Assembly (NCBI GenBank): GCA_034417895.1
Contig: DAOULT010000061.1
Location: forward strand, 22,379 to 86,378
From: Anaerolineae bacterium
GTDB taxonomy: Bacteria; Chloroflexota; Anaerolineae; CAZYHC01
Direction: 5' to 3'
DNA length: 64,000 nt
This document shows, piece by piece, positions 1,112 through 35,061 of this stretch. The first letter of the stretch is position 1. Each line of letters begins with the position of its first letter. The notes beneath the pieces are model-generated. The model made no database searches. It was not told the origin of the DNA and was given only the letters and a program-made list of their open reading frames with translations. A program made the position numbers and the translations under genes.

Positions 1112-1213
1112 AGCTCGTTTCGCCTTTCGACTTCTGCTCTATTGTACCATAAACTGATCAATCACGAAGCAGCCTGCCTGCAATGTCCCCTCAAATGGAC
1201 ATCCGCTCTTATC

Positions 1214-1279: not shown

Positions 1280-1583
1280 ATTTGTGCTGCGCAAAAAGCG
1301 GTCTTCGGAAGCTTCTGCGTTTTGAGCGGCGACAAGACGATCTTTGGCGTGACGGGGTTGTTTTGCAAAGGTACATCACCTGCTTCACCTGGCCGGGAGC
1401 AAAGAGCCGGCCCACGCTCTTTCACTACACGTGTGGTAAAGGGCGAGCTATCGTGGTGTGTTAGTCAATGGCGAAAGGGCGTGATGTGGAAGGGGACGAA
1501 AGAAGGACAGGAAGTGAGCGGGCTGGAGCAGTGGAACTGTTGGGCAAGGCTAGGACACAAAGTCTATCACTCGAGGGCATTTA

Positions 1584-1657
1584 GAACCTACGTTCCGAAA
1601 TTTTTAACCGAATTTTAACCTGGGCTTTACCTGGTAGTAACCTTCTTGTGGTATAAT
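1584..1657 (+). promoter_or_regulatory. Promoter cassette copy A2: a GGAACgtagGTTC palindrome, four phased TTTTAACC/TTTACC/TAACC boxes at 11-bp spacing, and extended -10 GTGGTATAAT upstream of the NACHT gene
   Basis: Sequence GTTCCGAAATTTTTAACCgaaTTTTAACCtgggcTTTACCtggtagTAACCttcttGTGGTATAAT. The last ACC box ends 9 nt before TATAAT, as in the three other copies. Confidence 0.45.
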
Positions 1658-1770
1658 ATTTACGGATGGAGTAGAGCCTCCTGCGAAGATGCGGTCTCGG
1701 CCTGCTTTTGCTGTAGCGAATACCAGTTATGCCTGGGTTGCTAAGAAAGATAAAAGCCAATATAATAGGT

Positions 1771-1816: not shown

Positions 1817-1966
1817 AGCCCAACCATGTAGCCGGAATGCGATGGAGAACCCGACTTTCTGAGGATATCATACCACAGGAGCCTGCCCCTCGCAAACCGG
1901 CGCAGGCTCTTTGTTATTTTGGCCCTTGCCGGTTTGGTGTTTCGTAGATTGTCTGGAGGGGAACTT

Positions 1967-11567: not shown

Positions 11568-14500
11568 TCACTTTCGGATAAGGGGCAGATTAACAGAGGG
11601 CTGCCGCACCGTAGTGGTGACCGGGCTGCCCATAGTAGGAGTCACTCCTACGACGTTTGTTATCACCGCCCCGTAGTCGTCGTTAGTGATGAGCGTCCCA
11701 GGGGCTGCATTTTTGTCCACCGTGATCGCGAAGGTCAGGGTGATGCTCTCGGTCGGGCTGATTTCCAGGCCCGACCAGGCCACTGTGTTTGTGGCACTGA
11801 TAAACGTACCACCCTGCCCGATGCTGGCGCAGCAGGTGCTGTTCGCTGGCACGGTATCGGTCACCTGGACGTTGTATTCAGGGATGGTAGGGATGGTGGG
11901 GACGGTTTGTTGCTCAGAAACCTGGCCCGGCCCCGCCCAGCCGTCTGCCAGTCCGCCCGTTGTAGCTCCGCTCGTGGCGGTGAGGACGATGGTGTAGTTG
12001 AGCACCCCGCCCGGAGCCACCGGGTCAGGAGAGTCGCTCTTGCTGATGTCCAGGGATAGGGGGGGCATGACCATAGTGGTCACCGCCGGCCCCCAGACTG
12101 GAGTGGGCACCTGCTCGCAGCATACGCCGCAGATAGTGTTGACGATGGCCTGGCCGCCGGCTAAACTGGAGATGGTCACTGTAAACACGCGATTGATGGA
12201 TGCTCCGCTGGGCAGGCTGGCTACGTTCCAGGTCACGATTCCGTCTGACTCTGTGCCTCCATCGCTGGCCGAGTCGAAGCTGGTGTTAGCGGGTACGGCG
12301 TCGGTGATGACCAGGTTCGAGGCCGGACTCGGGCCGGAGTTGGTGATGGTCAGGGTGTAGGTCAGCAGACTGCCGGCCAGAATCGGGCCCGGTTCCCCGG
12401 CCTTGTAGATGCACAGGCATGGCGGGGGAATGACCGTAGTGGTCACTGCCGTGCCCCAGGTTACAGTGGGCACCTGGTCGCAGCGCACGCCGTAGGTGGT
12501 GTTGGTGATGACCTGGCCGGCGGCTAAACTGGAGATGGTCACCGCAAATGTGCGAGTGATAGATGCCCCACCAGCCAGGCTGGACACCGTCCAGCTTACC
12601 ACATTGCCTGCTGCCAGCGTGCCTCCATCGCTGGCTGAGACGAAGCCTGTGTCAGCGGGCAAAGTGTCGGTGATGACCAGACTGGAGGCCGCGCCCGCGC
12701 CGGAGTTGGCGATGGTCAGGGTGTAGGTCAGCAGGCCACCGGCCTGGACCGGGTCCGGGTTATCGACCTTGGCGATGCTCAAGGATGGCGGGATCTCGCA
12801 AGTGCAGATGCGGAAATCGTCAATGAACCAGCCGTAAGCATCAGCCGAGCTGTCGGTGCCGATGCGGAAGCGGAAGCGCACGTTCTCCCCGGCCAGCATG
12901 CTCAGGTTAAGACGGCTGGAGATGTAGCCGTTGCTTTCCTGGCCAAAGGCCTGTCGCCCACCCAGCGGGTTGCCATAGCCAGTGTAGATGGTTCCCCTGT
13001 AGCCGTTGTGAGTGATCAACGACCCGGCGTCTTGCCACGAGGTGCCGCCATCGGTGCTGTACTCGATCACGCCGCCATCATACATGGTTGTTGCATAATC
13101 TTCGAAGGCGTAGGCGTGGTTGAAGTGCAGGTAGGGCGTGCTTCCGGCTGGCAGGGCCACGTCTGAGGTCATGGCTATGTAGTAGTCGGCGACACTGGGT
13201 TGGTTGTAGCCCCAGAGGTTGTAGACGCCGCTGGTGGCGTAGGTGGCATCGAAGCCGTAGGGATTGGCTGTCTGGGGATAGTACCACTCATCGACTCCGA
13301 CCAGCGCCGCATGAGCCCAGTTGCCGCTGGCTGTGTTCTCCATATCATCAAAGAACAGATTGTTGGGCGACTGTCCGATGGGGCAGATGGAAGACTCGGT
13401 CGCCTGGCATGATGACGGCTGTAGGTTCATCTCCGTGGCGTCCACCGCATCCTTTACCTCCTGGCAATCGGCGGCGGTGATGCCGCTGGTGCCGATCAGG
13501 TTGGTGCACGCCTGTTGCAGGCCGTTGTACAGATCGTTGTAGTCGGCGGCCGAGGTGAACATGTTGGCCTGCACTTCGTAGAAGATCTTGGCTGTTTTGT
13601 CAATGCCGATACCGGCGACGGTGTAGCCGTTGAAGATGTCGCCGTCCACCATCAGGTAGGCGGCTTTGCTGCCGACGCCCATGTTGGTATGCACGCCGCC
13701 GTTGTCCCCTTCGCCACAGTAGTAATAGGTGCTGCCCATTCTATCCGGGTCGCCATGGGCCGGTGGGTTGCTCATGTCGCGGATGGCGCCAATGGGCAGG
13801 TCCTCACCCATCTGCCAGCGGTCGGCCGGCATGTCACTGCCTGCCCCGTTGGTCAGGTCAACGAACTCGCCCCATATATCGGAGAAAGCTTCGTTGACAG
13901 CGCCAGACTGCATGTAGTAGAACAGATGCGAGGCATACTCGGTGACGCCGTGGGTCATCTCGTGGGCCACCACGTCGTCGGCCGCAGCGTAGCCCTCACC
14001 GTAGACCATTTGCTGGCCGTTCCAGAAGGCATTGGCGAAGGGGCAACTGCCTGCGTCCGGGCAGTAGCGCACAGTTTGAGTGAGGGTCATACCGGCGTTG
14101 TCGAGGCTATCCCGGTCATGCGTGTTGTAGTAGAAATCGTACGTGTCGCCGCCGTAATCGTAGGCGTCGTCCGCATCCGGTACACCGGTCGCTGGCCCTC
14201 CCTCGGTACGGACCGGGCCGGTACCAGGCAGACCTGCGGTCCAGTCGTTGTTATTGTCGTAGATCACGCGGTTTCTGGCCACGTCGATCTGGTTGAAGTG
14301 CAGAGCGACCGCCCCGGTGTGGGCATCTATCAGGACCAGTTCGCGGACGGGTTGTAGCTCCACCGGAGTCACTTCCATCCGCCAGACCAGGGCGCTCAGG
14401 TTGAAGCTCGGTCCGAGCAGGATCGGGCTGTAGATCCACAGTTCCGGCTGGCTCACCGTGAGGTCGCCGGCGTTGAGGTCATAGTATTTGGTCACCAGAC

Positions 14501-15041
14501 CACGCGCCAGTTCACGAGCGGTACTTGCCTCCAGCCGGGGGGTGGTGTTCACTTTCAGACCGGGCAGAATCTCCCCGCCGGCGGAGATGACGTTCTTTTC
14601 GGCATCCATCTGGACGATCAGTTCGCCGCCCACCACCGGGATACCCTGATAAACCTGCTGGAAACGGACAAAGGAACGGCCCCGGTCGGCCGATGTGACG
14701 CGCATTACCGTTAGCTCCTGAGCCTGGTCGGTCAGGCCGAAAAGCGGGCCGTAAGTTTCCAGAAACCGCCGGGCGGCCTGCTCTGGAGGGTCTCCCCCTT
14801 GAGGGATGGGGTGGGCCAGGTCGGTGCCGATGAACCGGACCCGGCCGGTTTGGGCGTGATAGGCAATGCTTGCCCGGCCGCCTGTTGCCCGCTGCAACTG
14901 GTCAATCAGGCTTGCGTCTGCGGGAGTTGGCGTTGGTGCCTGAGCAGGGGGGGCGGCTTGTGCGGTGACGAGAAAACCGGGAGAAAGGATCAACAAACTG
15001 AAGCAAACGACAATAGATAGAAAGCGCATTATCAATGACAT
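11568..15041 (-). CDS. Secreted M4 (thermolysin-family) zinc metalloprotease with a propeptide and C-terminal DUF11 repeat domains
   Basis: The ribosome-binding site AAGGAGGAGG precedes the ATG at 15041. It has a signal peptide, the HEXXH motif VVAHEMTHGV and the downstream GAVNEAFSD motif. There are at least three DUF11-type repeats (DNPDPVQAGGLLTYTLTI...). The C-terminus ends in PLIRK. Confidence 0.85.
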   Translation of the reverse strand: MSLIMRFLSIVVCFSLLILSPGFLVTAQAAPPAQAPTPTPADASLIDQLQRATGGRASIAYHAQTGRVRFIGTDLAHPIPQGGDPPEQAARRFLETYGPLFGLTDQAQELTVMRVTSADRGRSFVRFQQVYQGIPVVGGELIVQMDAEKNVISAGGEILPGLKVNTTPRLEASTARELARGLVTKYYDLNAGDLTVSQPELWIYSPILLGPSFNLSALVWRMEVTPVELQPVRELVLIDAHTGAVALHFNQIDVARNRVIYDNNNDWTAGLPGTGPVRTEGGPATGVPDADDAYDYGGDTYDFYYNTHDRDSLDNAGMTLTQTVRYCPDAGSCPFANAFWNGQQMVYGEGYAAADDVVAHEMTHGVTEYASHLFYYMQSGAVNEAFSDIWGEFVDLTNGAGSDMPADRWQMGEDLPIGAIRDMSNPPAHGDPDRMGSTYYYCGEGDNGGVHTNMGVGSKAAYLMVDGDIFNGYTVAGIGIDKTAKIFYEVQANMFTSAADYNDLYNGLQQACTNLIGTSGITAADCQEVKDAVDATEMNLQPSSCQATESSICPIGQSPNNLFFDDMENTASGNWAHAALVGVDEWYYPQTANPYGFDATYATSGVYNLWGYNQPSVADYYIAMTSDVALPAGSTPYLHFNHAYAFEDYATTMYDGGVIEYSTDGGTSWQDAGSLITHNGYRGTIYTGYGNPLGGRQAFGQESNGYISSRLNLSMLAGENVRFRFRIGTDSSADAYGWFIDDFRICTCEIPPSLSIAKVDNPDPVQAGGLLTYTLTIANSGAGAASSLVITDTLPADTGFVSASDGGTLAAGNVVSWTVSSLAGGASITRTFAVTISSLAAGQVITNTTYGVRCDQVPTVTWGTAVTTTVIPPPCLCIYKAGEPGPILAGSLLTYTLTITNSGPSPASNLVITDAVPANTSFDSASDGGTESDGIVTWNVASLPSGASINRVFTVTISSLAGGQAIVNTICGVCCEQVPTPVWGPAVTTMVMPPLSLDISKSDSPDPVAPGGVLNYTIVLTATSGATTGGLADGWAGPGQVSEQQTVPTIPTIPEYNVQVTDTVPANSTCCASIGQGGTFISATNTVAWSGLEISPTESITLTFAITVDKNAAPGTLITNDDYGAVITNVVGVTPTMGSPVTTTVRQPSVNLPLIRK

Positions 15042-15639
15042 GATGTTCCTCCTCCTTTTAATCTAAGGTAGATGATTTTCAAATTTAACTACGACCTGTA
15101 TTCTTATTATAAATCACCTCCTTATCCTGCATGGCAATGCCGTTAACTTGAGGGCCAAGGCGATGAAAACAACAGCCTGACCGCATCCGAAAATCCAAAT
15201 AGATAGCCGTGGAGACAGATTGCCTCTCCACATTCTCGTTGAATCTGGCGCAGCAAGCGAACAGGCGAGACGATATTGTCACCTGGTCTTTAGGCCAATT
15301 CTTAAATTAATGAGATCATATTATCGTCGATGTTCTTTGGGAGATTAGAAGATATTTTGTGGAGTAATTGTAAGACAGAGGAGGTATAATGTGCATTGAG
15401 GTTATGATGTGGCAGAACACAGAGTAGAACGGACAACAAAGCTCTATGCTCGATATAGCTCAAGTGATGGGTACTAGAACAACAGGTCTTCAGAGCCTTT
15501 TAGTACCGCGAAGTTACCAGCGTCGAAAAGAGAGTTTAGCAAATTCCTTTCGTTAGCTTGTTACTAAAATTATAAACCGTCCCCCCTTCAAAGTCAAGAG
15601 CTACAACCTTAAAATTTTGCCTAATTGCCCATTATTAAT

Positions 15640-15798: not shown

Positions 15799-18700
15799 CT
15801 ATTCGGAGATGGTGAACAGCCGCCCGTCGGAGCGGCCAAACACCTCCGGGAAATACATCTCGTTGGCGAAGGTGGGGATCACCCGGTATTCGCCCGGCAG
15901 GGTGGCGCGGAAGGTGTAGACGTATTCGTAGCTGCCGGCCGGCAGGTAATCGGCGAAGAGCACCATCTTCTCGTCGCGCATCTCGTAGCGGCTGTACCAG
16001 CGCCACCACCACCAGTAGAACTCCCGCCACCGCTCGTTCTGGGATTGGCGGTAGAGGTGAGGATCCCGCTCCAGCAGGCTGGTGGTCGCCAGGCTGGGGT
16101 CGATGGCCTCCGCCCCGGCCGGCAGCGGATCCTCGACGACCACGTAATACAGGTCGTGAGGAGCCACGATGGTCAGCTTGACCTGGATCACGTCGTCGAC
16201 TTTGGCACTGTCCACCTCTTCGCACTCCTTCCCCACGGCGCAGTCGGCCCTGGTGTACTGGCGGTAGACGATGATGCCCCGGTTGATGGGTTCGATGTCC
16301 TCCACGGGCAGGTAGATTTTCAGGTGAGCGGTGTAGTACAGGCGGCCCGGCCCTTCGTAGCGGCCAATGTCCAGTCGGTTGCCCTGGTCACGCAGCAGCT
16401 CGGCCACCGCCACCCGCAGCTTTATGCTCTGGTCCACGTTTTCGGCGTTCACCGCGCCAGAGGCCAGCTCTTCATCGTTGAGGGCGGCGAAGTACTCGTA
16501 CTGGCCCTGAAGCTCGCCGGTTACCACCATCCAGTCGGTCAGGGCGATCAGCGCCCAGGCCGTCTCCTGCGTGGTCTCCCAGATGCCATCCCGCCGGGCG
16601 ACCATCAGCCAGCGCACCACGTTGGGGATCAGGTCGTTGTCCGGATCCAGTTTAGCCAGGGCGTCCAGGATGATGGCCGTAGAACGGGTATCGGTGTTCA
16701 TGGCCCACCAGTCGTAGTGGGCTTCTTCCCAGTGGGCGCCGGTGGCGCTCAGGATGGCGGCGTTGTTGAGGTCGCTCAGGAGGGTGGGGAGGCGGTCATC
16801 GTTGGGGTTAATCAGGTCCAGGGTCATAGCCAGCAAAGCTCGACCGTAGTGAGATAGCTTCTCGCGATTCTCTAACAGGTCGCCGGTGTACTCACTGGCC
16901 CAGGCCGCATTTCCAGCCTCGGCCATAACGTAGAGGATGAACGCCTGACGGTTGGCCTGGCGATAGCCTTTCAGTTCGCGGCTGGTGACCAGTTGACCGA
17001 ACAGGTATTCCAGCCCCCTGGTGATGACCTCTTCCCTCACCTCGAAGCCGGCCTCGCGGGCTTTGTCCATCCCCAGGATTACGTAAGCGGTCAGGTGCGG
17101 GTTGCTGCTGGTGCTTCTGTACCACCACCCCCAGCCGCCATCGTCGTGCTGCATGAGATAGAGCTTGTTCAAGGCCGTCTCCACCAGGTCGGGCAGTATC
17201 TCCTCCAGGTCAGGCCGTTCGATGCCCAACTCACGCAGGGCGCGGTAGGTGAGCACGTTGGGCAGGAACCTGGACACCACCTGCTCGGAACATTCGTAGG
17301 GGAAGTGTTCCAGGTATTTCAGCCCGTCCTGCATCCCCGCGGCCAGAGAGGGATCGAGTTGGATCGTCAACTGACCCTGGCGTTCGTCGTAGCGGGGCGG
17401 CAGGGCTATCACTTCGGTGCGGGTGCCCTGCTCCACCAATTGTCCGCCGGTGCCGACCACCTCCGGGGCAGAGTAGCGATAGACCAGGAGCGTGCCCTCC
17501 GGGCCGGTGGTCAGCCGCGGACGGGCGGCGTCGCTGTATTCCCCGCACACGGCGCTGAAGATCAACTCAGCTTCCTCCACGTCGAGGACGGTCACGTCCC
17601 AGGTCACTTTAGCCTCCCCACCAGCCGGGATGTTGACGGTCTGTTCGGCGTCGCTGTGCAGCTTCAGGCCGCTGGAGCTGAGGGCCACCACGACGTCAAG
17701 GGCCTGGTCGGCGTTGTTGTTGACCAGGGCTGCCAGTTCGGCCCGGTCGTCTACCACGAAGAAGCGAGGGGTGACGGGGCGAACCAGCAGCGGCTTGGTG
17801 ACCAGAATCTCAGAAGTGGCCTCCCCGACCTGGGTGTTGGCGGTGACGGCCACGCCCCGGCATACCCAGGTGGTCAGGTTATCGGGCAGCGGGATCTCGA
17901 CGCTGGCCTGGCCGCTCCGGTCGGTGACTACGGTGGCGTTCCAGTAGGCGGTGTCGGCGAACTCTTCGCGCAGCTCCACTCCCGGCGGAGGCGCGGCCTG
18001 CTTCTCCTCAGCGAATTCCTCGTCTGCCGCCATCCCAGGCGTCATGGTAGCCGCTGGCGCAGGAGGAACCTCCCCCAGCATCATCCCTTCTTCTGCCCCT
18101 CTGGCGTGTTTGTCATACTCTTCGCCCCGCTCTTTGAGTTGTTCCAGCACCAGGCGGTTTATGGAGATAGCCAGGCCGCTGGAAGTGCTTACCCCCAGGC
18201 CCCGCTGGCCGTAGAAAGTGTTGACGATGGCCTCTGGCGGGCGGGGCGAAAGAGTCAGGATAGCTTTATCGACCAGGTCGAGGGAGAAGGCCGCCGCCAC
18301 CGGCTCTCCGGTATGATCGGTGGCCCGCACCTGGTAAGTCACGGTGTCGCCTGGCCCGGCCTTCTCCACGCTGGGGGTCAGGGTGATGGTCAGCTTTTGC
18401 GGCTCAGGATCGACGCTAAAGGCGGCGTAACCGACTTTGTAGTTAGCCACCGGGTTGTCTTCGTCCTGGCCCTTGACGATGACGGCTGAGACGTAGACGT
18501 TGGGCACGTGATCGAGGGTGATGGGCAGCTCGTAGACCTGGCTGTTGCTTTCCAGTTGGAGCACTTCACGATGGATGATGTTGCCCCGCTCGACAGTGAT
18601 CAGAGCATAGTGCTCGCCCTGGAAGGGAGAGGGGATCAGGATTTCAGCCGTCTCTCCCACGGTATAGCTGCCCTTGTCGGCGATGAGGTTGATGCGGTCG

Positions 18701-21700
18701 TTGTTCTCGCGTCGCCAGGAAACGTACTCGCGCCCGCTGACCCACACAAAGATGCTGCTCTGCACCAGGCGCTCGGTGGTGTCGCGCCCGTTGACCACGA
18801 TGCGGTACGATCCGCCTTTGGGCGGGATGAAGGTGGTAACCGCCTCGGCGTTTTGGTCGGTGGTGATGGTCTCCTCAAAGACCAGTTCGTTCACCGTCTC
18901 CCATTTCCAGCGGCCTCCGCCGGCTTCGTCCTCGACGAAGGTGTTGACCCACTCCCGACGGTAAACCTCCACTTTTAGCTTCTGGTTGGGGAACCGCTCT
19001 CCGGCCCAATCGACGGTCACGACGTCCACGGACATCTCTTTTTCGGCCCGCCCGATGTATTGGCGCGGAGCCAGGCCGACGTAAAATTCGCCCTGGTGGA
19101 CGACGATATCCTTCCGACCGGAGATGACCTGGTTGTCTGCGCCGGTAGCGGTGGCTTCCACGATCAGGCGACGGCTGCCCACCGGCCCTTCGCGGTCTGG
19201 AGCGACGGTCAACTGAGCGATGTTGCCCGGCAGCTCGACGATCAGTTGGCCGTTTTTATCGGTGCGCCCCGCCCCGCTGAGCACTACCTGGGGCGGTTCG
19301 GGATACCACCACCAGCAATCAAAGCAAATCCAGGGATCGTTGGTGTCGGTGAATCTGTAGCGACCGAATTGCGGCGGTTTGAAGCGATAGGTTTCGGCCA
19401 TCACGTTCCACTGGACGGGCACGTCTACCACCGGGCCGCCGAAGAAATATTTCACCTCGACGGTGGCCTTAGTAGGCTCTCCGGCCACGACCTCTTCCTG
19501 GTCGGGGGTGACGACCACCTCGAACTCCGGGGGACGATAGGCCGCCACCTGGAAACTGCCGGGGAAGTTAGAGCCTGCGAAGTTAGCCCGAATCTGGTAG
19601 TGGCCCAGAGACGCGCCCCCGGCCAGAGCCAGCTCCCCGTGGAAAGCGCCGAACTCGTCCAACTCCAGTTCCTCGTTATATACCTCCTCCCCGGCGGCGT
19701 CACGAATGGTAACGTACACTGGCTCCAGGTCGGGCAGGCCATAGTGAACGTCGTCTTCGGCGCGGATGATGCCCCGGAAGTACACCGTCTGTCCGGCGCG
19801 ATAGATGGGCCGCTCGGTGTAGACGTGGGCGCGGAAGTCACGCTTATACTCCTGGTTAAAGCCGAAGTCCCAGGACGTGACGCCGGGGTTCCACCCTTCG
19901 CCGCCCATAGTGAAGGGGGCTTCGCTGAGGACGAATATAGTGTTAGAGCGCCCGGAGCCTGTATCGAAGTGAGCCAGCCCATCGGCGTCGGTGGTGGCTG
20001 CGCCCAGCTTGTCTCCGTCCCGGTCGAGGGCCTTGAGTTCCAGGCCCGCCACCGGCCGGCCGGTAGGCAGGTCGGTGGCCCAGGCCAGCATCTCGTCGTC
20101 GGCGATCTTGAGGGTCAGGTTGGTCTCGGACACCACCAGCAGATGACGATGCCACCAGCGTTCGTAGGTCACATCCGGCGAATCGATATCCAAGAGATAG
20201 ATGCCGGACGGCAGCCTTCCCCCGCCTTCGACCAGATCGACGGGCAGGTATTGCTCTTCGTTCAGCGGCGCTTCGACCCACACCGACCAGGCCCGCATCA
20301 GGTCTCTACCAGGCGGGATGAAGTCATACCCCTCTCTCTGGGCCTGGAGGAAGTCATCCACGTCGAGGCCATAGAGCATCAAATCCAGGCGGCTGGTGTT
20401 GAGGTAGGCCACGAACAGGCGAGCCGGGTCGGCGGCGTTGTAGGTGCCCACCAAGCCGGGAACGTGCAGGCGGACCATCGGCTCCAGGGCCGCGGTGGTG
20501 AAGCGCACGGTCATCTCCTGGCCGGTGGTGTTGCCGTAGGGGTCGGCGATGTGGGGGCCGATGTGCACCTGGTAGTCGGTCGAGGGTTGGGGATTGAAGT
20601 AGAGCACAAAACTGTTATCCCAGGTGTCGAAGTAGGTGTAGACCTGGGTAGGCGAGAGCGGCGGGGTCATGGTCAGGTTGCCCATCACCGTGTCGGGGTC
20701 GATGGGGGCGTTAAAATGGATCCTGAAATCGGTGTAGGGATAGGCGTCCTTCGTCCCATCAGGGGGGGAAGTGCCGATGATGCGCGGCAGGGGCGCGGTG
20801 GTGAATCGCCACTCATAGTCAGCGCGCATCCCCTCCCCGCCGGACAGGCTGGTCACCCCGCGGGCGATGCGCACCTCATACGTCTGGTCAAAATCCAGCA
20901 TTTCCTCCGGCTGGAAAACTAAAGTGTTGGTGTAATACTCGAAGTCGCCGATCACCCGGCGGCCATCTGCGGTTTTGAGGCTGAAAGCTTCCTTGAAGGA
21001 TGAGAGGTCTATCGGCTGATTGAACTGCACCTCGATTTTGGTCACAGGGGCCACCAGGGTTTGATCGGTTGAGGGCGTAGTCCAGGTCACTTCGGGCGGC
21101 TGGGTGCTGAAGGTCCAGTCGTAATCTTCTTCCAGGAGGCCGCCGGTAGTGTCGCTGAGGCCGGCCACGACGCGGGCCGTGTAAGTGACGCCTCCGGCCA
21201 GGGGCTTATCCGGGGTGAAGATGTACATGGAGGTGTTCAGCCACTCGCCGCGGCCCGTGACTTGCGGCTCGAAGGTCAGCGGTTGGGGCAGGTCGGCCTG
21301 CTCGTCCAGGGTGGTCAGAGGCACGACGGGGCGGTTGAACATCACCGTCAGGCTGCCATCGGTCTCCACGTCGTAGCTCTCGGGGGCGGGGATGACCTGC
21401 GATACCTCCAGGTAGCCGACGGTGGTGAAGCGGAACGCATAAGTCTCTGCCAGAGAAACGCCGTCAGCGGCTTTGGCTTCCATTCCCAGGCTGACCTTAT
21501 AGGTCGTGGAGCGGGCCAGCGGCTCGGCGGGATAGAAGCGGACTGTCCTCTCGTCGGGCCACTCGAAGCGGCCTGCAACTTCAGGAGCGATGCGGAAAGC
21601 GTTTTCCACCGCAGCCTGATCCATGGCCCGGTCGAAGACCAATTCGACGGGGCCCTCCAGAGGCAACTCCTGGCCGCGCTCAGGCGTGCGCTGGATGACG

Positions 21701-21813
21701 ATGGGGGCCGGAACAGGGCCAGGGGACGCAGAGGTCTTCCTGGGCCGGCCAATGGCCCCCAAAAGCAGGCTGGTCACCACGACCAGCGTTAAAGCGATGT
21801 ACAGGTGTTTCAT
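15799..21813 (-). CDS. Bacterial alpha-2-macroglobulin family protein (about 2000 aa) with N-terminal Big_5/SbsA-type Ig domains and a CxEQ thioester motif
   Basis: The start is ATG 21813 with AGGAGGGAAG upstream and a signal peptide MKHLYIALTLVVVTSLLLGA. The thioester region is LEHFPYECSEQVVSRF. Its size and repeat architecture are typical of bacterial A2M. Confidence 0.85.
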   Translation of the reverse strand: MKHLYIALTLVVVTSLLLGAIGRPRKTSASPGPVPAPIVIQRTPERGQELPLEGPVELVFDRAMDQAAVENAFRIAPEVAGRFEWPDERTVRFYPAEPLARSTTYKVSLGMEAKAADGVSLAETYAFRFTTVGYLEVSQVIPAPESYDVETDGSLTVMFNRPVVPLTTLDEQADLPQPLTFEPQVTGRGEWLNTSMYIFTPDKPLAGGVTYTARVVAGLSDTTGGLLEEDYDWTFSTQPPEVTWTTPSTDQTLVAPVTKIEVQFNQPIDLSSFKEAFSLKTADGRRVIGDFEYYTNTLVFQPEEMLDFDQTYEVRIARGVTSLSGGEGMRADYEWRFTTAPLPRIIGTSPPDGTKDAYPYTDFRIHFNAPIDPDTVMGNLTMTPPLSPTQVYTYFDTWDNSFVLYFNPQPSTDYQVHIGPHIADPYGNTTGQEMTVRFTTAALEPMVRLHVPGLVGTYNAADPARLFVAYLNTSRLDLMLYGLDVDDFLQAQREGYDFIPPGRDLMRAWSVWVEAPLNEEQYLPVDLVEGGGRLPSGIYLLDIDSPDVTYERWWHRHLLVVSETNLTLKIADDEMLAWATDLPTGRPVAGLELKALDRDGDKLGAATTDADGLAHFDTGSGRSNTIFVLSEAPFTMGGEGWNPGVTSWDFGFNQEYKRDFRAHVYTERPIYRAGQTVYFRGIIRAEDDVHYGLPDLEPVYVTIRDAAGEEVYNEELELDEFGAFHGELALAGGASLGHYQIRANFAGSNFPGSFQVAAYRPPEFEVVVTPDQEEVVAGEPTKATVEVKYFFGGPVVDVPVQWNVMAETYRFKPPQFGRYRFTDTNDPWICFDCWWWYPEPPQVVLSGAGRTDKNGQLIVELPGNIAQLTVAPDREGPVGSRRLIVEATATGADNQVISGRKDIVVHQGEFYVGLAPRQYIGRAEKEMSVDVVTVDWAGERFPNQKLKVEVYRREWVNTFVEDEAGGGRWKWETVNELVFEETITTDQNAEAVTTFIPPKGGSYRIVVNGRDTTERLVQSSIFVWVSGREYVSWRRENNDRINLIADKGSYTVGETAEILIPSPFQGEHYALITVERGNIIHREVLQLESNSQVYELPITLDHVPNVYVSAVIVKGQDEDNPVANYKVGYAAFSVDPEPQKLTITLTPSVEKAGPGDTVTYQVRATDHTGEPVAAAFSLDLVDKAILTLSPRPPEAIVNTFYGQRGLGVSTSSGLAISINRLVLEQLKERGEEYDKHARGAEEGMMLGEVPPAPAATMTPGMAADEEFAEEKQAAPPPGVELREEFADTAYWNATVVTDRSGQASVEIPLPDNLTTWVCRGVAVTANTQVGEATSEILVTKPLLVRPVTPRFFVVDDRAELAALVNNNADQALDVVVALSSSGLKLHSDAEQTVNIPAGGEAKVTWDVTVLDVEEAELIFSAVCGEYSDAARPRLTTGPEGTLLVYRYSAPEVVGTGGQLVEQGTRTEVIALPPRYDERQGQLTIQLDPSLAAGMQDGLKYLEHFPYECSEQVVSRFLPNVLTYRALRELGIERPDLEEILPDLVETALNKLYLMQHDDGGWGWWYRSTSSNPHLTAYVILGMDKAREAGFEVREEVITRGLEYLFGQLVTSRELKGYRQANRQAFILYVMAEAGNAAWASEYTGDLLENREKLSHYGRALLAMTLDLINPNDDRLPTLLSDLNNAAILSATGAHWEEAHYDWWAMNTDTRSTAIILDALAKLDPDNDLIPNVVRWLMVARRDGIWETTQETAWALIALTDWMVVTGELQGQYEYFAALNDEELASGAVNAENVDQSIKLRVAVAELLRDQGNRLDIGRYEGPGRLYYTAHLKIYLPVEDIEPINRGIIVYRQYTRADCAVGKECEEVDSAKVDDVIQVKLTIVAPHDLYYVVVEDPLPAGAEAIDPSLATTSLLERDPHLYRQSQNERWREFYWWWWRWYSRYEMRDEKMVLFADYLPAGSYEYVYTFRATLPGEYRVIPTFANEMYFPEVFGRSDGRLFTISE

Positions 21814-21837
21814 TTTCTTCCCTCCTGATCTCAGGTG

Positions 21838-21856
21838 ATCGTGGACGTACCACGAT
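21838..21856. promoter_or_regulatory. Inverted repeat ATCGTGG-acgta-CCACGAT, about 25-45 nt upstream of the A2M start; operator-like
   Basis: It has perfect 7-bp arms and an adjacent GCCATGGC palindrome. Confidence 0.25.
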
Positions 21857-22182
21857 GGCCATGGCGCTAAATCTACCTTAGAGACGTTGGAGCTGGCGAG
21901 AAAGTTCCCCCACGTTGCTGCTGATGGGTGCATTGTACCACAGCCTCTTCAGGGGGTCAAAGAGGACAGCAGGGGCCTGGCACGACGAACGTTCGCTGTT
22001 GAAGTGCCAGGCGGCTGAAAATTGGAAAGTCGGAAAAACGCGAAGAATATGGTATAATGTCAGGCGTGGAGCGGCCATTGACCGGCTCATTCGCAGGGGG
22101 CTGACGGCGAGGTGACACCGCTAGACGAAGGTTTCAATTTCGCATTGTGTTTATCTCCGAAGAGGAGAAAGGAGAAAATAAC

Positions 22183-23892
22183 ATGTACAAACTCATCACC
22201 AAGGGACTGCGTCTACTTTTCATCGTGGCCCTGGCTGCCGGGCTGGCTCTGGGCGCGGCGCCCGTGCCGGTGGCTCACGCCGCTACGATCAATGTCAACA
22301 GCACCACCGATAACACGACCGCTGGCGACGGCACCTGTACCCTGCGCGAAGCTATCAATAACGCCAACGCCGACGCCGATACTACCGGAGGCGACTGTGC
22401 TGCCGGCAGCGGCGCTGACACCATCAGCCTTCTTGCCGGCACCTACACCCTGACGATAGTTTCCACAGACGAAGACGCCAACGCCGACGGCGACCTGGAC
22501 ATCACAGGAGGAAGCGACCTGACCATCCAGGGCGCAGGCGCAGCCACCACCATCATCGACGGCAACGGCAGCGTGACGAATGGCCGTGTGCTCCACATCA
22601 CCATAAGCGACATCACCGTCAGCATAGACGGGGTGACCATTCAGAACGGCAACATGGGAGACTGGGGAGGGGGCATCTACAACCACGGCAGCCATTTGAA
22701 CGTCGCCAACAGCATCATCTCCGGCAACCAGGCAAGCCACCACGGCGGCGGCATCTTCAACTTCGGCGGCACGGCGACCATCTCTAACAGCACCATCTCC
22801 GGCAACCAGACAATACACTACGGCGGCGGCATCGACAACAGCGGCGCGGTGACCATCACCAACAGCACCATCTCCGGCAACCAGGCAAACTGGGGCGGCG
22901 GTGGCATCCGCAACAGCGGCGGCACGTTGAACGTCGCCAACAGCACCCTCTCCGGCAACCAGGCAGACTCTGACGGCGGCGGCATCTACAACGGGAGCGG
23001 CACGACCACCCTGGACAACGTGACGATTAGCGGCAACACCGCCAGCGGCGACGGCGGGGGGGTCACCGGGGACCCCCAATATGGCGGTATAGTCAATCTC
23101 AGAAACACCATCATCGCCGGGAACACCGACACGGGCGGAGAAGCGCCCGATGGTAGCGGGACGCTTACCTCCCTGGACTACAACCTGGTAGGGAACAGCA
23201 CGGGCTGCACCATCACCCTGCAAGCGAACGACCAGATAGGCACCGGCGGCAGTCCCATTGACCCCATGCTGGGACCCCTGGCCGACAACGGCGGCGCGAC
23301 GCACACACACGCCCTGCTCATCGGCAGCCCGGCCATTGATAAGGGCCATTGCACCGACAGCGGCGGCAACCCTGTCACCACCGACCAGCGCGGCGTGGCC
23401 CGGCCACAAGGCGCTACCTGCGACGTCGGGGCATACGAGAAAGCCATTGCGCCTGGCGTGCCAGATTTGTCCATCGGCAAGAGCGCCATCCCTGATCCGG
23501 TGATTGCTGGCGGCCTGTTGACCTACACCATCAACGTGGCCGAAAGGGGCGGCCTGGTAGACGCTACCGGGGTGCAGATGACCGACACCATACCCGCCGA
23601 CACCGTTTTCGCCTGGGCCGACAACGGCGGCTCTCTGGTGGGCGGCGACGTGCTATGGTCGGGCCTGACCATCAGCGCCAGCCAGAGCATCAGCATCGCC
23701 TTTGTAGTGACGGCCAGCTATAGACCCCATGCCACCACGCTCCGCTGGTTCCTCCACAACGATCACTACCAGGCGGTCATCGCTACCACCGCAGGGATAA
23801 GCGTGGTGACAGGCAGCGCCGTGACCACCACGGTACGGGCCATTGGAGCCTATCTGCCCACCATCCAGAGGAACAACGTCATCACGCCGTAA
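22183..23892 (+). CDS. Secreted CSLREA-domain protein with right-handed beta-helix repeats (NSTISGNQA rungs) and a C-terminal DUF11 domain
   Basis: The ribosome-binding site AGGAGAAAGGAG precedes the ATG at 22183. It has a signal peptide, a GDGTCTLREAINNANAD motif, about eight NxTISGNQ(A/T) repeats and a DUF11 motif (PDPVIAGGLLTYTINV). Confidence 0.75.
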   Translation: MYKLITKGLRLLFIVALAAGLALGAAPVPVAHAATINVNSTTDNTTAGDGTCTLREAINNANADADTTGGDCAAGSGADTISLLAGTYTLTIVSTDEDANADGDLDITGGSDLTIQGAGAATTIIDGNGSVTNGRVLHITISDITVSIDGVTIQNGNMGDWGGGIYNHGSHLNVANSIISGNQASHHGGGIFNFGGTATISNSTISGNQTIHYGGGIDNSGAVTITNSTISGNQANWGGGGIRNSGGTLNVANSTLSGNQADSDGGGIYNGSGTTTLDNVTISGNTASGDGGGVTGDPQYGGIVNLRNTIIAGNTDTGGEAPDGSGTLTSLDYNLVGNSTGCTITLQANDQIGTGGSPIDPMLGPLADNGGATHTHALLIGSPAIDKGHCTDSGGNPVTTDQRGVARPQGATCDVGAYEKAIAPGVPDLSIGKSAIPDPVIAGGLLTYTINVAERGGLVDATGVQMTDTIPADTVFAWADNGGSLVGGDVLWSGLTISASQSISIAFVVTASYRPHATTLRWFLHNDHYQAVIATTAGISVVTGSAVTTTVRAIGAYLPTIQRNNVITP

Positions 23893-25544: not shown

Positions 25545-25573
25545 TTGACATGGGACGCATTTCGTGGTATACT
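25545..25573 (+). promoter_or_regulatory. Sigma70-like promoter TTGACA-17-TATACT, leaving a leader of about 350 nt before the small DUF11 gene
   Basis: TTGACAtgggacgcatttcgtggTATACT. Confidence 0.4.
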
Positions 25574-25888
25574 AAAGTCAACTTTCAGCAATAAACTGTG
25601 CATTTGTATCCTTACGGCTTTGCGGAGCGGAGCGGCTACGCCCCTTGTTGTCTTTTCATAAATTGATCTGGCTCTGGCTTACTCCACCTGCCTGAGGGGA
25701 GGAGAGCAGCGATGACATATGTTGTCGTCATGACCGGGGCCAGCGAAGACAGTGGGGGTGTAAAGCTTTGGTAATCTCTGAGAAAGATAAATGAAAGGAG
25801 GGAAAGAAAAGGTTACTTACACCGGTTTATTGTTAAGGAGGTAAAGAAAAGGTACAACAGGCGACTGTCAAGAAAGACCAGACGAGAT

Positions 25889-25906
25889 AGAACAGTTGAC
25901 TGTTCT
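25889..25906. promoter_or_regulatory. Inverted repeat AGAACAG-ttga-CTGTTCT next to the CTTGTACAAG palindrome, immediately upstream of the ribosome-binding site of the small DUF11 gene
   Basis: It has perfect 7-bp arms. A 10-bp perfect palindrome follows 1 nt later. Confidence 0.3.
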
Positions 25907-25927
25907 TGTACAAGAAGGAGGAAAGTT

Positions 25928-26554
25928 ATGCGTAAAACAAAAGACAATGCTAAATTCCCCTCAGGTTTATCTATTCTAATCGTCGTGGGCCTGGCCCTGG
26001 TTATGCTGCTTGCGGCCAGACCTACCGTCTGGGCTACGGGAGAGCAACAGACTATACCTACTATACCTACTATACCGACCATACCCTCTCCACTGACCAT
26101 CACCAAGACCGACTGTCCTGATCCGGTGGAGCCAGGCGCTATTCTCAACTACACCATCGTGGTCGCTGCCGTGGCCCCTGTCGTACCGGACGGGCCAGCA
26201 GACGAGTGGGCGGGGGCAGGGCAGGTTAGCTCTCGGCAGACCCTCCCTTACGGCATAGTGGTGACCGACGTCGTGCCGGCTAACACCACTTTCTCCAGCG
26301 CCGATAGCGGCGGCACGTACATCAGCGCCACAAACATGGTGGTCTGGTCGGGCCTGTCAATCACCGCCGGCGAGAAGATCACTGTACAGCTCAATGTCCG
26401 GGTCGCCCAAGGTCTATCCGTGGGAACGGTTCTCGAGAACGCCTACTACGGGGCGATGGTAACAAACACCGCGGGAGTGAGTGCTACGGTGGGTGTCCCG
26501 GTCACCACTACGGTGGCGTGGAACCCTCTGAGGCTGCCTCTCATTCGGAAGTAA
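25928..26554 (+). CDS. Small secreted DUF11-domain protein, a paralog of the protease C-terminal domain
   Basis: The ribosome-binding site AAGGAGG is present. It has a signal peptide, a TIPTIPTIPTIP repeat and PDPVEPGAILNYTIVV. The C-terminal 100 aa align with the C-terminus of the 11568..15041 protein, and both end in LPLIRK. Confidence 0.7.
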   Translation: MRKTKDNAKFPSGLSILIVVGLALVMLLAARPTVWATGEQQTIPTIPTIPTIPSPLTITKTDCPDPVEPGAILNYTIVVAAVAPVVPDGPADEWAGAGQVSSRQTLPYGIVVTDVVPANTTFSSADSGGTYISATNMVVWSGLSITAGEKITVQLNVRVAQGLSVGTVLENAYYGAMVTNTAGVSATVGVPVTTTVAWNPLRLPLIRK

Positions 26555-26591
26555 GAGCCGAGTATAGCTGTAGCTGCTCCAAACATCTGGC

Positions 26592-26627
26592 GGGCGAGGT
26601 TTCAGGACCTCGCCCGTTTTTGTTGTT
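26592..26627 (+). terminator. Intrinsic terminator; a conserved 3' element family member
   Basis: GCTGCTCCAAACATCTGGCGGGCGAGG-tttcaggac-CTCGCCC GTTTTTGTTGTT. Confidence 0.6.
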
Positions 26628-26762
26628 GGGGAGGTCTTTTTCCTGCTTTCACACAAACCACCTCCCGGGTATCTTGTCCAACGTTTCCTGGCAAGAAGTC
26701 CGCCAGGAAAGCCCTTGCTCCTGGCTTCGGCAATGACGGCGACGACAACGACGCAAGCGAAT

Positions 26763-32211: not shown

Positions 32212-35061
32212 TTACTCACCTATCCATATCTCTCCCAACACCACCCTGTCCCCCATAGCCTCTCCCCCGGCCTCGAAGGCCGGGAGGCGCGCCCCGCTGG
32301 CCTCCTCGTACATCCCAATCTCGACCACGTACCGGCCCGGCGGCGCATCGGCCCGCACCGGGAGACGGTAGGTGTCGCTCAGATATTCTCCCGGCTGCCA
32401 GCCGCTGGTAGGCGGGTCGGGGAACTTATCCTGCTGGCCCCAAATGTGGCCCGCCTGGTCTACCAGGTGGGTGAAGACCTTGTAACTTTTATCCATAGAA
32501 TGCAAAGCCTGCCAGTAAAGGGTCAGGGAGAGCGTCTGGCCGGGCGAGAGATGATCGGCGCTTAAGTCGTAGCCCACCAGCCCCACCCCCTGGCCCAGAC
32601 GCGCTTCCAGGGGATGCTGGATGTTCTGGGGCCGCTCGAAGAGAGCCGGACGGCCCTGAACGGCCACCGTCGCCAGGGTGAAATAATCCTCCCCGCAGAA
32701 AAACCATAGTCCCGATCTTCGCCTCAGCCGCGAGCGGTCGGCGGCGCGGTATAAGCCCACGACGAGACGATATCGCCCGGCCGGCGCGCCAGCCGGAAGC
32801 AGCAGGTCGTGAGGGTCGCGCACGATCTCTTCTCGCCTCCAGCCAGAGGTCGGGTAGCGGCCTGCTACTGGCCCAGACTCCTCCGCCGCCTGCCAGACTC
32901 CCTCGTCGTCCAGCAGCTCTATAAAAACGACGTAGTCTGCCAGATTGTCGGCCAGCGCTCGCCAGAAAAGATCGACGGTCAACTGACCGCCTGGCTCGAC
33001 GGTCAGGGCCGACAGGTCGTAGCCCATAAGCTCCACCTGGTGGGCGAAGTTGGCCCTGGCCGCATAGGTCATGGCTGGCGCTCCCCTGGCAGTCGGGGGG
33101 CAGCTGATTTCTACAGAACCTATCCCGATCCAGGGACCCTGGTCGCGCGCCTCCAACGCCTTCCCCGTGTGCGGATCGTACATCCCCACTTTCAACTCGT
33201 ACCGGCCAGGCGGCGTACCGGGGGGCACGGTCAGACGCAAGGGATGGCGGACGACCTGCCCCACGGCCCAACGCGCAGGGCCGTAGAGCGGGCCTGAAGG
33301 CACCTCGTCCACCTGGGCCCACAGACGACCCTGCGGCCCGAAAAGGCCACAAACGACGTGATAATCCCGCTTTGGGGCCAGCCGAGGCTCCCAATACAGG
33401 GCCAGGTCGAGGGCCTCGCCTGCCGCCACAGAGTTTAGCGCTGCTTCGTAGCCTGCCAGGGTCAGCTCGTCGTCCAGGCTGAGGTCGAGGGTGTGGGTGG
33501 GGGACGATTGGCGATTGGTGAGATAGCCCTGCGCCCTGACGTTGCTCTCCCCGCTGAAAACCCGATCGTCGAATTTCAGGCCGTGCTCGTCGAGCCAGGC
33601 GCGGACGAAGCCGTCCACATCGACTACGGTGTCGTAAGCGCGCAGCACCCACAGGCGAGGGTGGGCGGCAAAGACTCGCTCCAGGGCGTGGGCCGTCTCC
33701 TGTTCGCTGGTAGCGTAGAAATCCGAAGCCGCATCGCCCCACCCCAGGCCGGGGTCGCCGCCAATGGAGCCTGTTTGCAAGACCACCAGGCCCTCTCTGT
33801 CCGTCGCCACGTAATCCACCAGCCGCCCCCGCCAGGCGATGTCGTCATCTCCCCGGTAATAATAGAGAAAAGTGGGGTAAACGTACCCGGCGTTGACGAG
33901 CACGGCGTCGCCAAGCCGGTAGCCCTGGACGATGTGGCTCACTGCGGCGCGGTAATCGTCGCTGGCGTATTGGCTATCGAAGTGAAAGCGGTAGAAAGAA
34001 TAGCCCAAAGCAGCCACCACGATGGCCGCCCCCAGGAGGGCTATGGGCCGGGAGCGTCCGGCCAGCCAGGCCAGTCCCGCCGCCAACAGTACGTAGAAGG
34101 CCGGCGAGTAAGTGAAAACGTAGCGGATGTGGAAAAGCGGCGTCCAGAAGGAAGCCAGATAAATGAGGGCCAGCGGCCCAAAAGTGTGGCCCAAAAGCAG
34201 CAGGCCAGAGCCCGGTGAGCGGCGAAGGAAACCCAGAATGTAAATGGCCGCTATAATTAGCAATACCGGCCAGACCGCCCCCGGCGACACAGATTGCCCC
34301 AGAGCCAGAGCTGACCACGACTCGACGACCACCGTCCAGACAGAGGTGAAGGCCCGCCAGGGAGGGACGGGCGGATCAAGGGCCTGGCGCAAAGCGATGG
34401 GCAGCCAGGGCAGGTAGAGTACCACGACGGCCAGTTGGGCCAGGCTCCATTTCCGAATCCACTTCCAGGGCCGCCGCCGAGCGACGATCCAGCAGCCCAC
34501 GTAGAGATTGATGAAAATGAGCAGAAAGGCGAAATAATAAAGGACGTAGAGACCCAGCACGGCGCTCAAAACGTATCCGAGCCAGGGGCCTAAGCTCGTA
34601 CCATGCCGCAGTTGGAGCAGATAGTGGAGGGTCAGCAGGCCCAGGCAGGCCCCCAGGGTATACATCCGTATCTCCTGGGAGTACCATACATTGTAGGGGG
34701 AGAGAGCTACCGCCCCGGCGGCCAGCAACCCCACCACAGGATCGTAGAGACGCCGCCCCAGGCGATAAACCAGAGGGACAAGCAACACCCCAAAAATGAG
34801 GGACAGGAAGGCCGCCGCGAACTCGCTGGAGCCTGCCGCTCTGATCCAGAAATGCAGCAGGTAATAGTAGAGAGGAGGATGGATGTCGCCGGCCGTGTGA
34901 GCGGTCAGGGCTGGCAGACTCCTGGCTGCCAGGTGGAGACTGACCGCTTCGTCGTACCAGATGCTCTGATAGCCGAGCCTGTAGAGGCGCAAGGCGCAGC
35001 CCCCCAGAATGATGCCGAGCAATATTGCCCGCCGCCTCCCACCGAGATGGTTTTTGTCCAC
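32212..35061 (-). CDS. Polytopic membrane protein with an N-terminal GT-C fold (glycosyltransferase family 39 / ArnT-PMT-like) and three C-terminal LYW repeats
   Basis: It has the N-terminal WYDEAVS motif followed by more than 10 transmembrane helices. Three repeats of about 120 aa contain GYDL...L.LYW.AL ... PTSGW ... APGRY..VG.Y. Confidence 0.8.
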   Translation of the reverse strand: MDKNHLGGRRRAILLGIILGGCALRLYRLGYQSIWYDEAVSLHLAARSLPALTAHTAGDIHPPLYYYLLHFWIRAAGSSEFAAAFLSLIFGVLLVPLVYRLGRRLYDPVVGLLAAGAVALSPYNVWYSQEIRMYTLGACLGLLTLHYLLQLRHGTSLGPWLGYVLSAVLGLYVLYYFAFLLIFINLYVGCWIVARRRPWKWIRKWSLAQLAVVVLYLPWLPIALRQALDPPVPPWRAFTSVWTVVVESWSALALGQSVSPGAVWPVLLIIAAIYILGFLRRSPGSGLLLLGHTFGPLALIYLASFWTPLFHIRYVFTYSPAFYVLLAAGLAWLAGRSRPIALLGAAIVVAALGYSFYRFHFDSQYASDDYRAAVSHIVQGYRLGDAVLVNAGYVYPTFLYYYRGDDDIAWRGRLVDYVATDREGLVVLQTGSIGGDPGLGWGDAASDFYATSEQETAHALERVFAAHPRLWVLRAYDTVVDVDGFVRAWLDEHGLKFDDRVFSGESNVRAQGYLTNRQSSPTHTLDLSLDDELTLAGYEAALNSVAAGEALDLALYWEPRLAPKRDYHVVCGLFGPQGRLWAQVDEVPSGPLYGPARWAVGQVVRHPLRLTVPPGTPPGRYELKVGMYDPHTGKALEARDQGPWIGIGSVEISCPPTARGAPAMTYAARANFAHQVELMGYDLSALTVEPGGQLTVDLFWRALADNLADYVVFIELLDDEGVWQAAEESGPVAGRYPTSGWRREEIVRDPHDLLLPAGAPAGRYRLVVGLYRAADRSRLRRRSGLWFFCGEDYFTLATVAVQGRPALFERPQNIQHPLEARLGQGVGLVGYDLSADHLSPGQTLSLTLYWQALHSMDKSYKVFTHLVDQAGHIWGQQDKFPDPPTSGWQPGEYLSDTYRLPVRADAPPGRYVVEIGMYEEASGARLPAFEAGGEAMGDRVVLGEIWIGE

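Follow-up and report, generated by a model that had tools for sequence, protein, structure and literature searches.

The DNA stretch analyzed here, 64,000 nucleotides from an Anaerolineae bacterium of the Chloroflexota (the window), is part of contig CAZHQI010000007 of the metagenome-assembled genome (MAG) GCA_964534025.1. It contains a gene for a 208-residue protein (gene A and protein A), a paralog of the C-terminal module of a large M4 protease (protein B) encoded on the opposite strand, and both proteins end with the same six residues, LPLIRK. Gene A was called in this MAG and in two Sequence Read Archive (SRA) assemblies, with an identical protein in all three copies and only two single nucleotide polymorphisms (SNPs) in the upstream 575 nt; the three available copies of the locus are one population. 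The source samples are SRR14802572 and SRR14802574. Proteins and sequences outside the window are given by our own P and L numbers. The parts of A, together with protein B and a third tail-bearing protein of the window (protein C), are as follows.

25928-26554 including the stop codon, plus strand: coding sequence of protein A, 208 aa, ATG start, predicted secreted CLIPPER/DUF11 protein
25928-26035, plus strand: predicted signal peptide, residues 1-36 of A, read from the sequence, with MRKTKDNAK, the hydrophobic core LSILIVVGLALVMLLAA, and VWA before TG
26051-26085, plus strand: (TIP)4 linker, residues 42-53 of A, a 9-nt tandem repeat ACTATACCT in 3.9 copies (Tandem Repeats Finder score 56, 92% matches)
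26090-26515, plus strand: CLIPPER (DUF11) CnaA-like immunoglobulin (Ig) domain, residues 55-196 of A, from PF01345, alignment, AF2, and Foldseek
26171-26248, plus strand: lineage-specific loop insertion, residues 82-107 of A (…PDGPADEWAGAGQVSSRQTLPYG), of low AF2 confidence (block means 53-67)
26534-26551, plus strand: C-terminal tail LPLIRK, residues 203-208 of A, YLP-box-like without the Tyr
11568-15041, minus strand: M4 protease B, 1157 aa
11571-12089, minus strand: paralogous module, C-terminal 173 aa of B, ending NLPLIRK (tail codons 11571-11588)
22183-23892, plus strand: tail-bearing protein C, 569 aa, with CSLREA, choice-of-anchor Q, and DUF11 regions and the tail AYLPTIQRNNVITP

The paralogy, which had been proposed in an earlier note on this DNA, was confirmed by pairwise BLASTP: residues 44-208 of A matched residues 985-1157 of B with 49% identity, 64% positives and an E value of 9e-44, a protein similarity far beyond chance. 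Protein B is composed of an FTP propeptide, M4 catalytic and helical domains, a MAM-like region, and three DUF11 repeats (Pfam/NCBIfam), and the other two repeats matched A more weakly (E 2e-17 and 2e-9). Protein C was 33% identical to A (E 9e-19). In both A and B, the stop codon follows LPLIRK directly, as the note had stated. Its alignment of the remaining blocks stood in part: VPANTTF of A is aligned with VPANSTCC of B, and the LPLIRK tails are aligned, too. The TIPT stretch of A lies outside the residues 60-208 named for that alignment, and the (TIP)4 of A is N-terminal to the domain, while TIPTIP of B falls within the domain loop insertion, so that their positions do not correspond. The peptides EQQTIPTIPTIP of A and EQQTVPTIPTIP of B are identical at 11 of 12 residues. 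A recent DNA exchange as the source of the shared EQQT(I/V)PTIPTIP was rejected because the codons are different throughout, and the codon usage of (TIP)4 in A is unlike that of TIPTIP in B and in the two paralogs P0128 and P0130.

The same module is found in two proteins that the MAG encodes on contigs other than that of A, the papain-type C1 protease P0130 and the FG-GAP protein P0128. Both have the same specialised terminal domain, including the loop insertion and a TTCCAS block, and their endings are VYLPVIRK and IYLPFIRK, respectively. Like other secreted M4 (thermolysin-family) proteases, B has C-terminal extensions, and A is homologous to the last of these beta-sandwich extensions. In contrast to such proteases, A has no peptidase domain, and the extension itself is of the CLIPPER type with a YLP-like tail and is found on nonprotease heads as well. 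A further copy of the module in the same genome, P0001 (L004 5344-5775), is 143 aa long, has a TTG start, and ends with NLPLIRK; it lacks the signal peptide, the first strand, and the Lys and is probably a gene remnant.

The description of A as a small, presumably secreted DUF11 protein was also borne out, with a score of 29.4 bits against Pfam PF01345 (DUF11; cut-off 24.6, E 1.1e-6, residues 109-186) and a putative signal peptide readable at the N terminus. The predicted cleavage site was placed by the −3/−1 rule; the predicted local distance difference test (pLDDT) of the AF2 model was below 50 at residues 13-30. A basic n-region and a hydrophobic core are seen at the N termini of A, B, and C alike. 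The AF2 model of A, built from 12 aligned sequences, has 11 strands and a beta-sandwich core with pLDDT of 90-98, no secondary structure beyond residue 196, and a tail that is not packed on the domain. In the Foldseek comparison with the Protein Data Bank (PDB), the best match was 9IFR, a CLIPPER domain (TM 0.68 normalised to the target), followed by the CnaA-type pilin domains of BcpA, SpaD, RrgA, and EbpB. The 9IFR structure was found by fold comparison only, as the PDB sequence search with the module profile gave no meaningful match.

DUF11 was renamed CLIPPER in 2025, and 9IFR, from a fibrillar adhesin of Acinetobacter, is a CnaA-like Ig domain with an Asp-catalysed Lys-Asn isopeptide bond that confers heat and protease resistance (Protein Sci 2025, PMC12617251). 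The columns of this triad are conserved in all full-length sequences of the module alignment, with Lys60 of A nearly invariant and Asp114 and Asn171 invariant. In the canonical DUF11 repeats of B the distances are 34 from K to D and 89 from K to N, in agreement with K715/D748/N806 of 9IFR, and the spacing in A agrees with both once the insertion is allowed for. An isopeptide bond between Lys60 and Asn171, catalysed by Asp114, is probably formed in A, judging from the conservation of the triad, which not every member of the family possesses. Protein A thus shares with the CLIPPER domain of 9IFR a score above the Pfam gathering threshold, the CnaA-like Ig fold, the triad residues at matching spacing, and the occurrence in signal-peptide-bearing surface or secreted proteins. 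It differs in that a single domain makes up almost the whole protein instead of a tandem stalk in a giant adhesin, in the 26-residue lineage-specific loop insertion, and in sequence, with 14% identity to 9IFR.

Within the loop insertions, a peptide cassette GLAD[DEG]WAxxGQ(VSxxQ)TxP(TIPTIP) was noticed at two separate loop positions of the terminal CLIPPER domain. One is the B-C loop, in A, B, P0128, and P0130; the other follows the "VVW" strand, in P0001 and L007, and P0130 has a second copy there (sites: window 26171-26248 for A and ~11892-11990, minus strand, for B; L036 11876 and 12056, L037 10796, L004 5539, and L007 5). The cassette is Gln/Thr/Pro-rich, of low AF2 confidence, and was found in this genome and L007 only.

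The tail of A consists of L-P, two aliphatic residues, and a basic end at the extreme C terminus, with no C-terminal hydrophobic segment. The tails of the module-bearing paralogs align column for column, and those of A and B agree at 6/6 residues, against an identity of only about 50% in their domains. Among A, B, P0001, and the second MAG L007, where NLPLIRK occurs as well, the LPLIRK codons show synonymous differences and the stop codons differ, with the peptide remaining identical; a comparison of these codons supports selection at the peptide level. L-P is preceded by Arg in A and by Asn in B, P0001, and L007; across this one genome, the residues at the position are Y (three times), N (twice), R, and H. 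Such tails are carried by at least seven proteins encoded in ~105 kb of the genome, namely, A, B, C, P0001, P0128, P0130, and an 89-aa protein of L037. The tail of C is a longer variant, YLPTIQRNNVITP, and two neighbouring genes in L008, an Anaerolineales MAG, have this type in the form YLPTIQKSYVITP. The 89-aa protein (L037 5203-5472, same MAG) appears to be secreted, has (S)YTL(N/S)G repeats and GGFW, and ends with AIHLPLILK; its start overlaps the stop of a gene for a 615-aa Peptidase_S74-domain protein. As a tail bearer with no DUF11, it shows that in this genome the tail does not depend on DUF11.

The motif was then viewed as a class. The module profile was searched against 1.84 billion representative proteins and retrieved 10,611 DUF11 proteins; the best 150 matches were mostly giant multirepeat DUF11 proteins, and together with P0001 they formed the set of 151 proteins whose C termini were read. 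The pattern [YFLWHN]-[LFY]-P-aliphatic-aliphatic-(x)-[RK] was present within 15 residues of the stop in 18 of the 151 proteins, compared to nine internal matches in 386,887 residues. With a position matrix from the tails of other genomes, the tails of A and B scored 18.7 and 18.8 bits, values central to the leave-one-out range for canonical tails, and the frequency of 9-mers in the 151 proteins scoring as high was ~5e-5; the pattern and the matrix are partly circular, having been built from tails picked by eye. The motif is C-terminally enriched, and it also follows last domains other than DUF11, namely, a different beta-sandwich in P0070 and P0081 and, in P0093, a region that we take to be DNRLRE-like. 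In two sequences, L026 (949-8694) and P0093, the box is present twice in tandem near the end. Where the terminal domain is DUF11, the module alignment places the tail always 4-9 residues after the last strand PVTTTV.

The heads of the tail bearers are varied (M4, C1, and C25 peptidases, SBBP and PD40 propellers, FG-GAP, and CSLREA/choice-of-anchor Q). Signal-peptide-like N termini were seen in 13-14 of 19 tail bearers, the remainder being fragments, and a C-terminal transmembrane-like segment in 0 of 19. Where a source is named, it is a Chloroflexota MAG, from the Anaerolineales, the Thermoflexales, or, in one case, a bin assigned to Dehalococcoidales; P0014, for example, is annotated as "DUF11 domain-containing protein [Thermoflexales bacterium]." The metagenome scan with the module alignment gave only generic DUF11 relatives of at most 39% identity, L026 included.

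Canonical tails of this kind are matched by two NCBIfam models, NF050076 (sort_motif_YLP, curated cut-off 15 bits) and NF053834 (ultrashort_CTERM, 10 bits), both described as "YLP-box putative sorting motif-containing protein." Two paralogs from the genome studied here, P0130 (14.9 bits) and P0128 (13.9 bits), score above the cut-off of NF053834. The tails of A and B share with the YLP-box the extreme C-terminal position, the L-P-aliphatic-aliphatic-(x)-basic core with no membrane helix after it, and the occurrence on signal-peptide proteins of Chloroflexota MAGs with very varied heads. They differ in having no Tyr or Phe and no match to either model. By position and pattern, not by a match to a hidden Markov model (HMM), LPLIRK is classed here as a variant of the YLP-box ([YF]-L-P-aliphatic-aliphatic-x-[RK] at the extreme C terminus) in which another residue stands in the place of the aromatic one. 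Both CLIPPER domains and YLP-box tails were already known; A is a new member of the two kinds, with a tail that is invisible to the HMMs. As some variants found here, the tail of C among them, are missed, the current YLP-box models under-call the family.

A short conserved L-P motif at the C terminus of exported proteins with interchangeable heads is also typical of the sortase (LPXTG) and exosortase-type signals, and C has a "choice-of-anchor" domain, a class named for its link to varied anchoring signals. The PEP-CTERM, PGF-CTERM, GlyGly-CTERM, and LPXTG signals are tripartite, with a motif, a hydrophobic membrane-spanning helix, and a basic cluster. Unlike the substrates of sortases, exosortases, archaeosortases, and rhombosortase, the YLP-type proteins end 0-3 residues past the basic residue and have no helix. 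Protein A has no T-G, no hydrophobic segment, and no match to the NCBIfam LPXTG models, and likewise no helix and no match to the NCBIfam CTERM models of the exosortase, archaeosortase, and rhombosortase systems. Lacking a membrane helix by which the substrate would be kept at the membrane, the tail cannot act by sortase- or exosortase-like tethered transpeptidation.

We propose that gene A is a monocistronic unit for a small surface or extracellular protein that would be exported by the Sec pathway and would consist of nothing but the C-terminal "stalk plus tail" cassette, which in this Chloroflexota genome is also fused to several secreted enzymes. Removal of the ~36-residue signal peptide would leave a mature protein of ~172 residues with the Gln/Thr/Pro linker (TIP)4, one CLIPPER Ig domain, probably locked by the isopeptide bond described above, and a flexible peptide ending with LPLIRK. 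For the tail, the most likely role is that of a short linear signal by which exported proteins would be retained or sorted at the cell envelope, either via a processing enzyme or by direct binding to the envelope. The head-less copy A could serve as a surface component made of the stalk only, or it could compete for anchoring sites. The suggestion of the earlier note that the shared ending is a sorting or anchoring signal agrees with the curated, putative YLP-box class; the sorting or anchoring itself is what we infer. This explanation as a whole, an exported stalk-plus-tail protein with a YLP-like sorting tail and a chance palindrome upstream of its gene, is favored here with moderate confidence. 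A wider version is tentative, namely, that the YLP-type tail is a true Chloroflexota envelope signal without a membrane helix, served by machinery unlike sortases and exosortases, that its aromatic residue is dispensable, and that A is its minimal natural cargo. If this were true, A might be an abundant surface component of the stalk-only kind or such a competitor, and it would be an ideal reporter for finding the tail machinery.

By itself, A amounts to a routine annotation, a secreted CLIPPER-domain paralog of a protease C-terminal module. Its value lies in offering a clean example of an ultrashort hydrophobic-basic C-terminal motif that is found on many exported Chloroflexota proteins and is listed by NCBI only as a putative sorting signal. 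With only stalk and tail, the mature protein would be a convenient substrate for questions of tail cleavage, modification, and surface retention, which bear on protein display in Chloroflexota, whose envelope biology is poorly known.

Several points weigh against the proposed role of A and its tail, in addition to the partial circularity of the pattern and matrix. The tails of A, B, P0001, L007, and C gave no match to NF050076 or NF053834 even at E ≤ 10, and the conserved Tyr/Phe before L-P is replaced by Arg in A (RLPLIRK) and by Asn in B (NLPLIRK). Two giant proteins, P0057 and P0064, have the motif ~170 residues from the C terminus, before a further CARDB-like domain, and because of these internal occurrences the term "C-terminal signal" is not absolute. 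No paper on the YLP-box or tail motif or on Chloroflexota sorting motifs was found in the searchable literature, the motif being curated only as "putative," and we know of no experiment or partner enzyme for a YLP-type motif. Protein A has no ortholog outside its own population: the word-indexed protein search gave P0001 only, and scans with A of the GTDB species genomes and JGI metagenomes found none. The expression of A is a prediction.

The tail might be merely a structural extension of this DUF11 subfamily, a capping strand or folding aid that was duplicated along with the domain and has no sorting role. This is unlikely, even if all three tail bearers of the window have the tail directly after DUF11, the distance to the strand PVTTTV is kept within 4-9 residues, and A and B are passed over by the curated YLP-box models. 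The motif also ends proteins without DUF11 at the C terminus (P0070, P0081, P0093, and the 89-aa protein of L037), the box is doubled in L026, and the internal DUF11 repeats of B are tail-less. The tail has no secondary structure and does not pack on the domain in the AF2 model, and it is fully identical between A and B, against 49% identity of the domains. The reading of the tail as a retention or sorting signal is consistent with this independence from the domain.

The region upstream of A and the end of the gene contain the following features.

25545-25573, plus strand: promoter-like site TTGACA, 17-nt spacer, TG-extended TATACT, with 11/12 positions matching; a candidate promoter
25574-25927, plus strand: long putative 5′ leader, ~350 nt, purine-rich near its 3′ end, deduced from the 25545 promoter-like site
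25795-25813 and 25835-25853, plus strand: two 19-nt direct repeats AAGGAGGnAAAGAAAAGGT, 95% identical, 40-nt spacing
25889-25906, plus strand: perfect inverted repeat AGAACAGT-TG-ACTGTTCT with 8-nt arms (equal to 7-N4-7), exact
25905-25914, plus strand: 10-bp palindrome CTTGTACAAG, overlapping the inverted repeat and abutting the ribosome-binding site, one exact copy
25914-25921, plus strand: ribosome-binding site GAAGGAGG, 6 nt before the ATG of A, read from the sequence
26589-26628, plus strand: intrinsic-terminator-like sequence, a hairpin (26589-26618) with a 13-bp stem and 8 GC pairs, then a T-rich run

The site at 25545 is the sole promoter-like sequence on the plus strand upstream of the A open reading frame (ORF), and two of its elements, AGCTnTTGAC and GGTATAnT, recur in the promoters of genes for paralogs. 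Upstream of both B (window 15569-15621, minus strand) and P0130 (L036 9738-9791), which are on different contigs of the MAG, a promoter cassette of ~55 nt was noticed, GGCAAAATTTTAAGGTnnTAGCTCTTGACTTTG..GGGGG..ACGGT(T)TATAAT; measured from it, the leaders are ~520 nt in B and ~205 nt in P0130. The direct repeats AAGGAGGnAAAGAAAAGGT are Shine-Dalgarno-like, lie upstream of the true Shine-Dalgarno sequence, and are not followed by a start codon; they could be ribosome standby sites or a duplication product.

The inverted repeat and the CTTGTACAAG palindrome are present exactly as the earlier note described, between the promoter-like site and the ribosome-binding site. Perfect inverted repeats whose arms are 8 nt and whose spacers are 0-6 nt number 16 in the window versus 9.3 ± 2.8 in shuffles, so that a repeat of this kind is not beyond chance; perfect 10-bp palindromes number 30 versus 73 in shuffles. 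No second copy of the inverted repeat with up to 3 mismatches was found in the 64 kb (13 of 100 shuffles gave one or more), and it does not occur in a further ~41 kb of this genome (L036, L037, and L004), including the region upstream of P0130, which is readable; the region upstream of P0128 is an assembly gap. The repeat begins 316 nt downstream of the −10 hexamer and, with CTTGTACAAG included, lies 14-39 nt upstream of the start codon. None of the usual marks of an operator (a known consensus, recurrence upstream of genes, proximity to the promoter) was found, and our preferred reading of the palindrome is that an inverted repeat arose by chance within the long, purine-rich leader. A reading of its GAAC...GTTC as a LexA box was rejected on spacing, which is N8 here, the consensus of the Gram-positive-type box being GAAC-N4-GTTC.

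As an alternative to chance, the inverted repeat could form an RNA stem-loop before the Shine-Dalgarno sequence that stabilizes the mRNA or tunes translation in a structured leader of ~350 nt, which we consider quite improbable. The whole leader folds somewhat better than shuffles (minimum free energy [MFE] of −109.9 kcal/mol, z −2.49, 2 of 100 shuffles as good), the long leaders of B and P0130 fit such a role, and the two Shine-Dalgarno-like repeats would act as decoys before the true site. The local hairpin is, however, weak and no better than shuffles (−7.8 kcal/mol, z 0.09), and in the MFE structure of the full leader the repeat pairs differently. Rfam gave no family for the leader, its sole match being subthreshold (21.2 versus 46 bits) and over the terminator; no convincing small ORF was seen in the leader, and the k-mers common to the leaders of A, B, and C are at chance level only.

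Still less probable is that the 3′ end of a protease-type gene was duplicated and that the A ORF is the decaying, nonfunctional piece that remained. It would fit with the remnant-like module copy P0001 in the same samples, with the missing orthologs in the public collections searched, and with the loss in A of the box Tyr and of the CC pair of the paralogs. Against it stand the signals of gene A, namely, a promoter-like site and a terminator of its own and a consensus ribosome-binding site placed at the ideal distance, together with an entire signal peptide and a full-length domain that retains every triad residue and whose core is modelled with confidence. The frame is intact, and the protein is identical in three assemblies.

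Least probable of all is that the inverted repeat, with or without CTTGTACAAG, is an operator at which a dimeric repressor beside the ribosome-binding site would block elongation or translation: the perfect 8-2-8 repeat followed by a perfect 10-bp palindrome close to the start, and an 11-mer shared by the leaders of the tail-bearing A and B only, are outweighed by its uniqueness within 3 mismatches, the number of comparable repeats in the window (16 versus ~9 expected), its absence from L036, L037, and L004, the distance of 316 nt from the −10 hexamer with no promoter overlap, a spacing that differs from the LexA box (N8 versus N4), and neighbours of A (a DUF362 protein and a DksA/TraR zinc-finger protein) among which no DNA-binding repressor gene was found. 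The 11-mer, TGTTCTWGTAC, is exact twice in the window, at 25901 in the leader of A and at 15471-15481 (minus strand) in that of B, and with up to one mismatch there are 3 matches versus 0.9 expected, a number reached in 8 of 100 shuffles; noticed post hoc, this is weak. The repressor control proposed in the earlier note is, accordingly, unsupported rather than disproved.

Other genes of the window were noted in passing. Directly upstream of the M4 protease gene B, on the same strand, is a gene for a bacterial alpha-2-macroglobulin of 2044 aa with a TED domain, an inhibitor that traps proteases (15799-21933, minus strand), which is adjoined by the gene of the CSLREA/choice-of-anchor Q protein C. 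At 1919-4768 (plus strand), a 949-aa protein joins a NACHT/STAND NTPase to a C-terminal FGE-sulfatase (SUMF1-like) domain, an unusual pairing. Large glycosyltransferases of the PMT_2 family (dolichyl-phosphate-mannose protein mannosyltransferase-like) are encoded near tail-bearing genes, at 32212-35061 (minus strand) of the window and at 43-1668 (minus strand) of L037; as pure speculation, they could glycosylate the Thr/Pro linkers.

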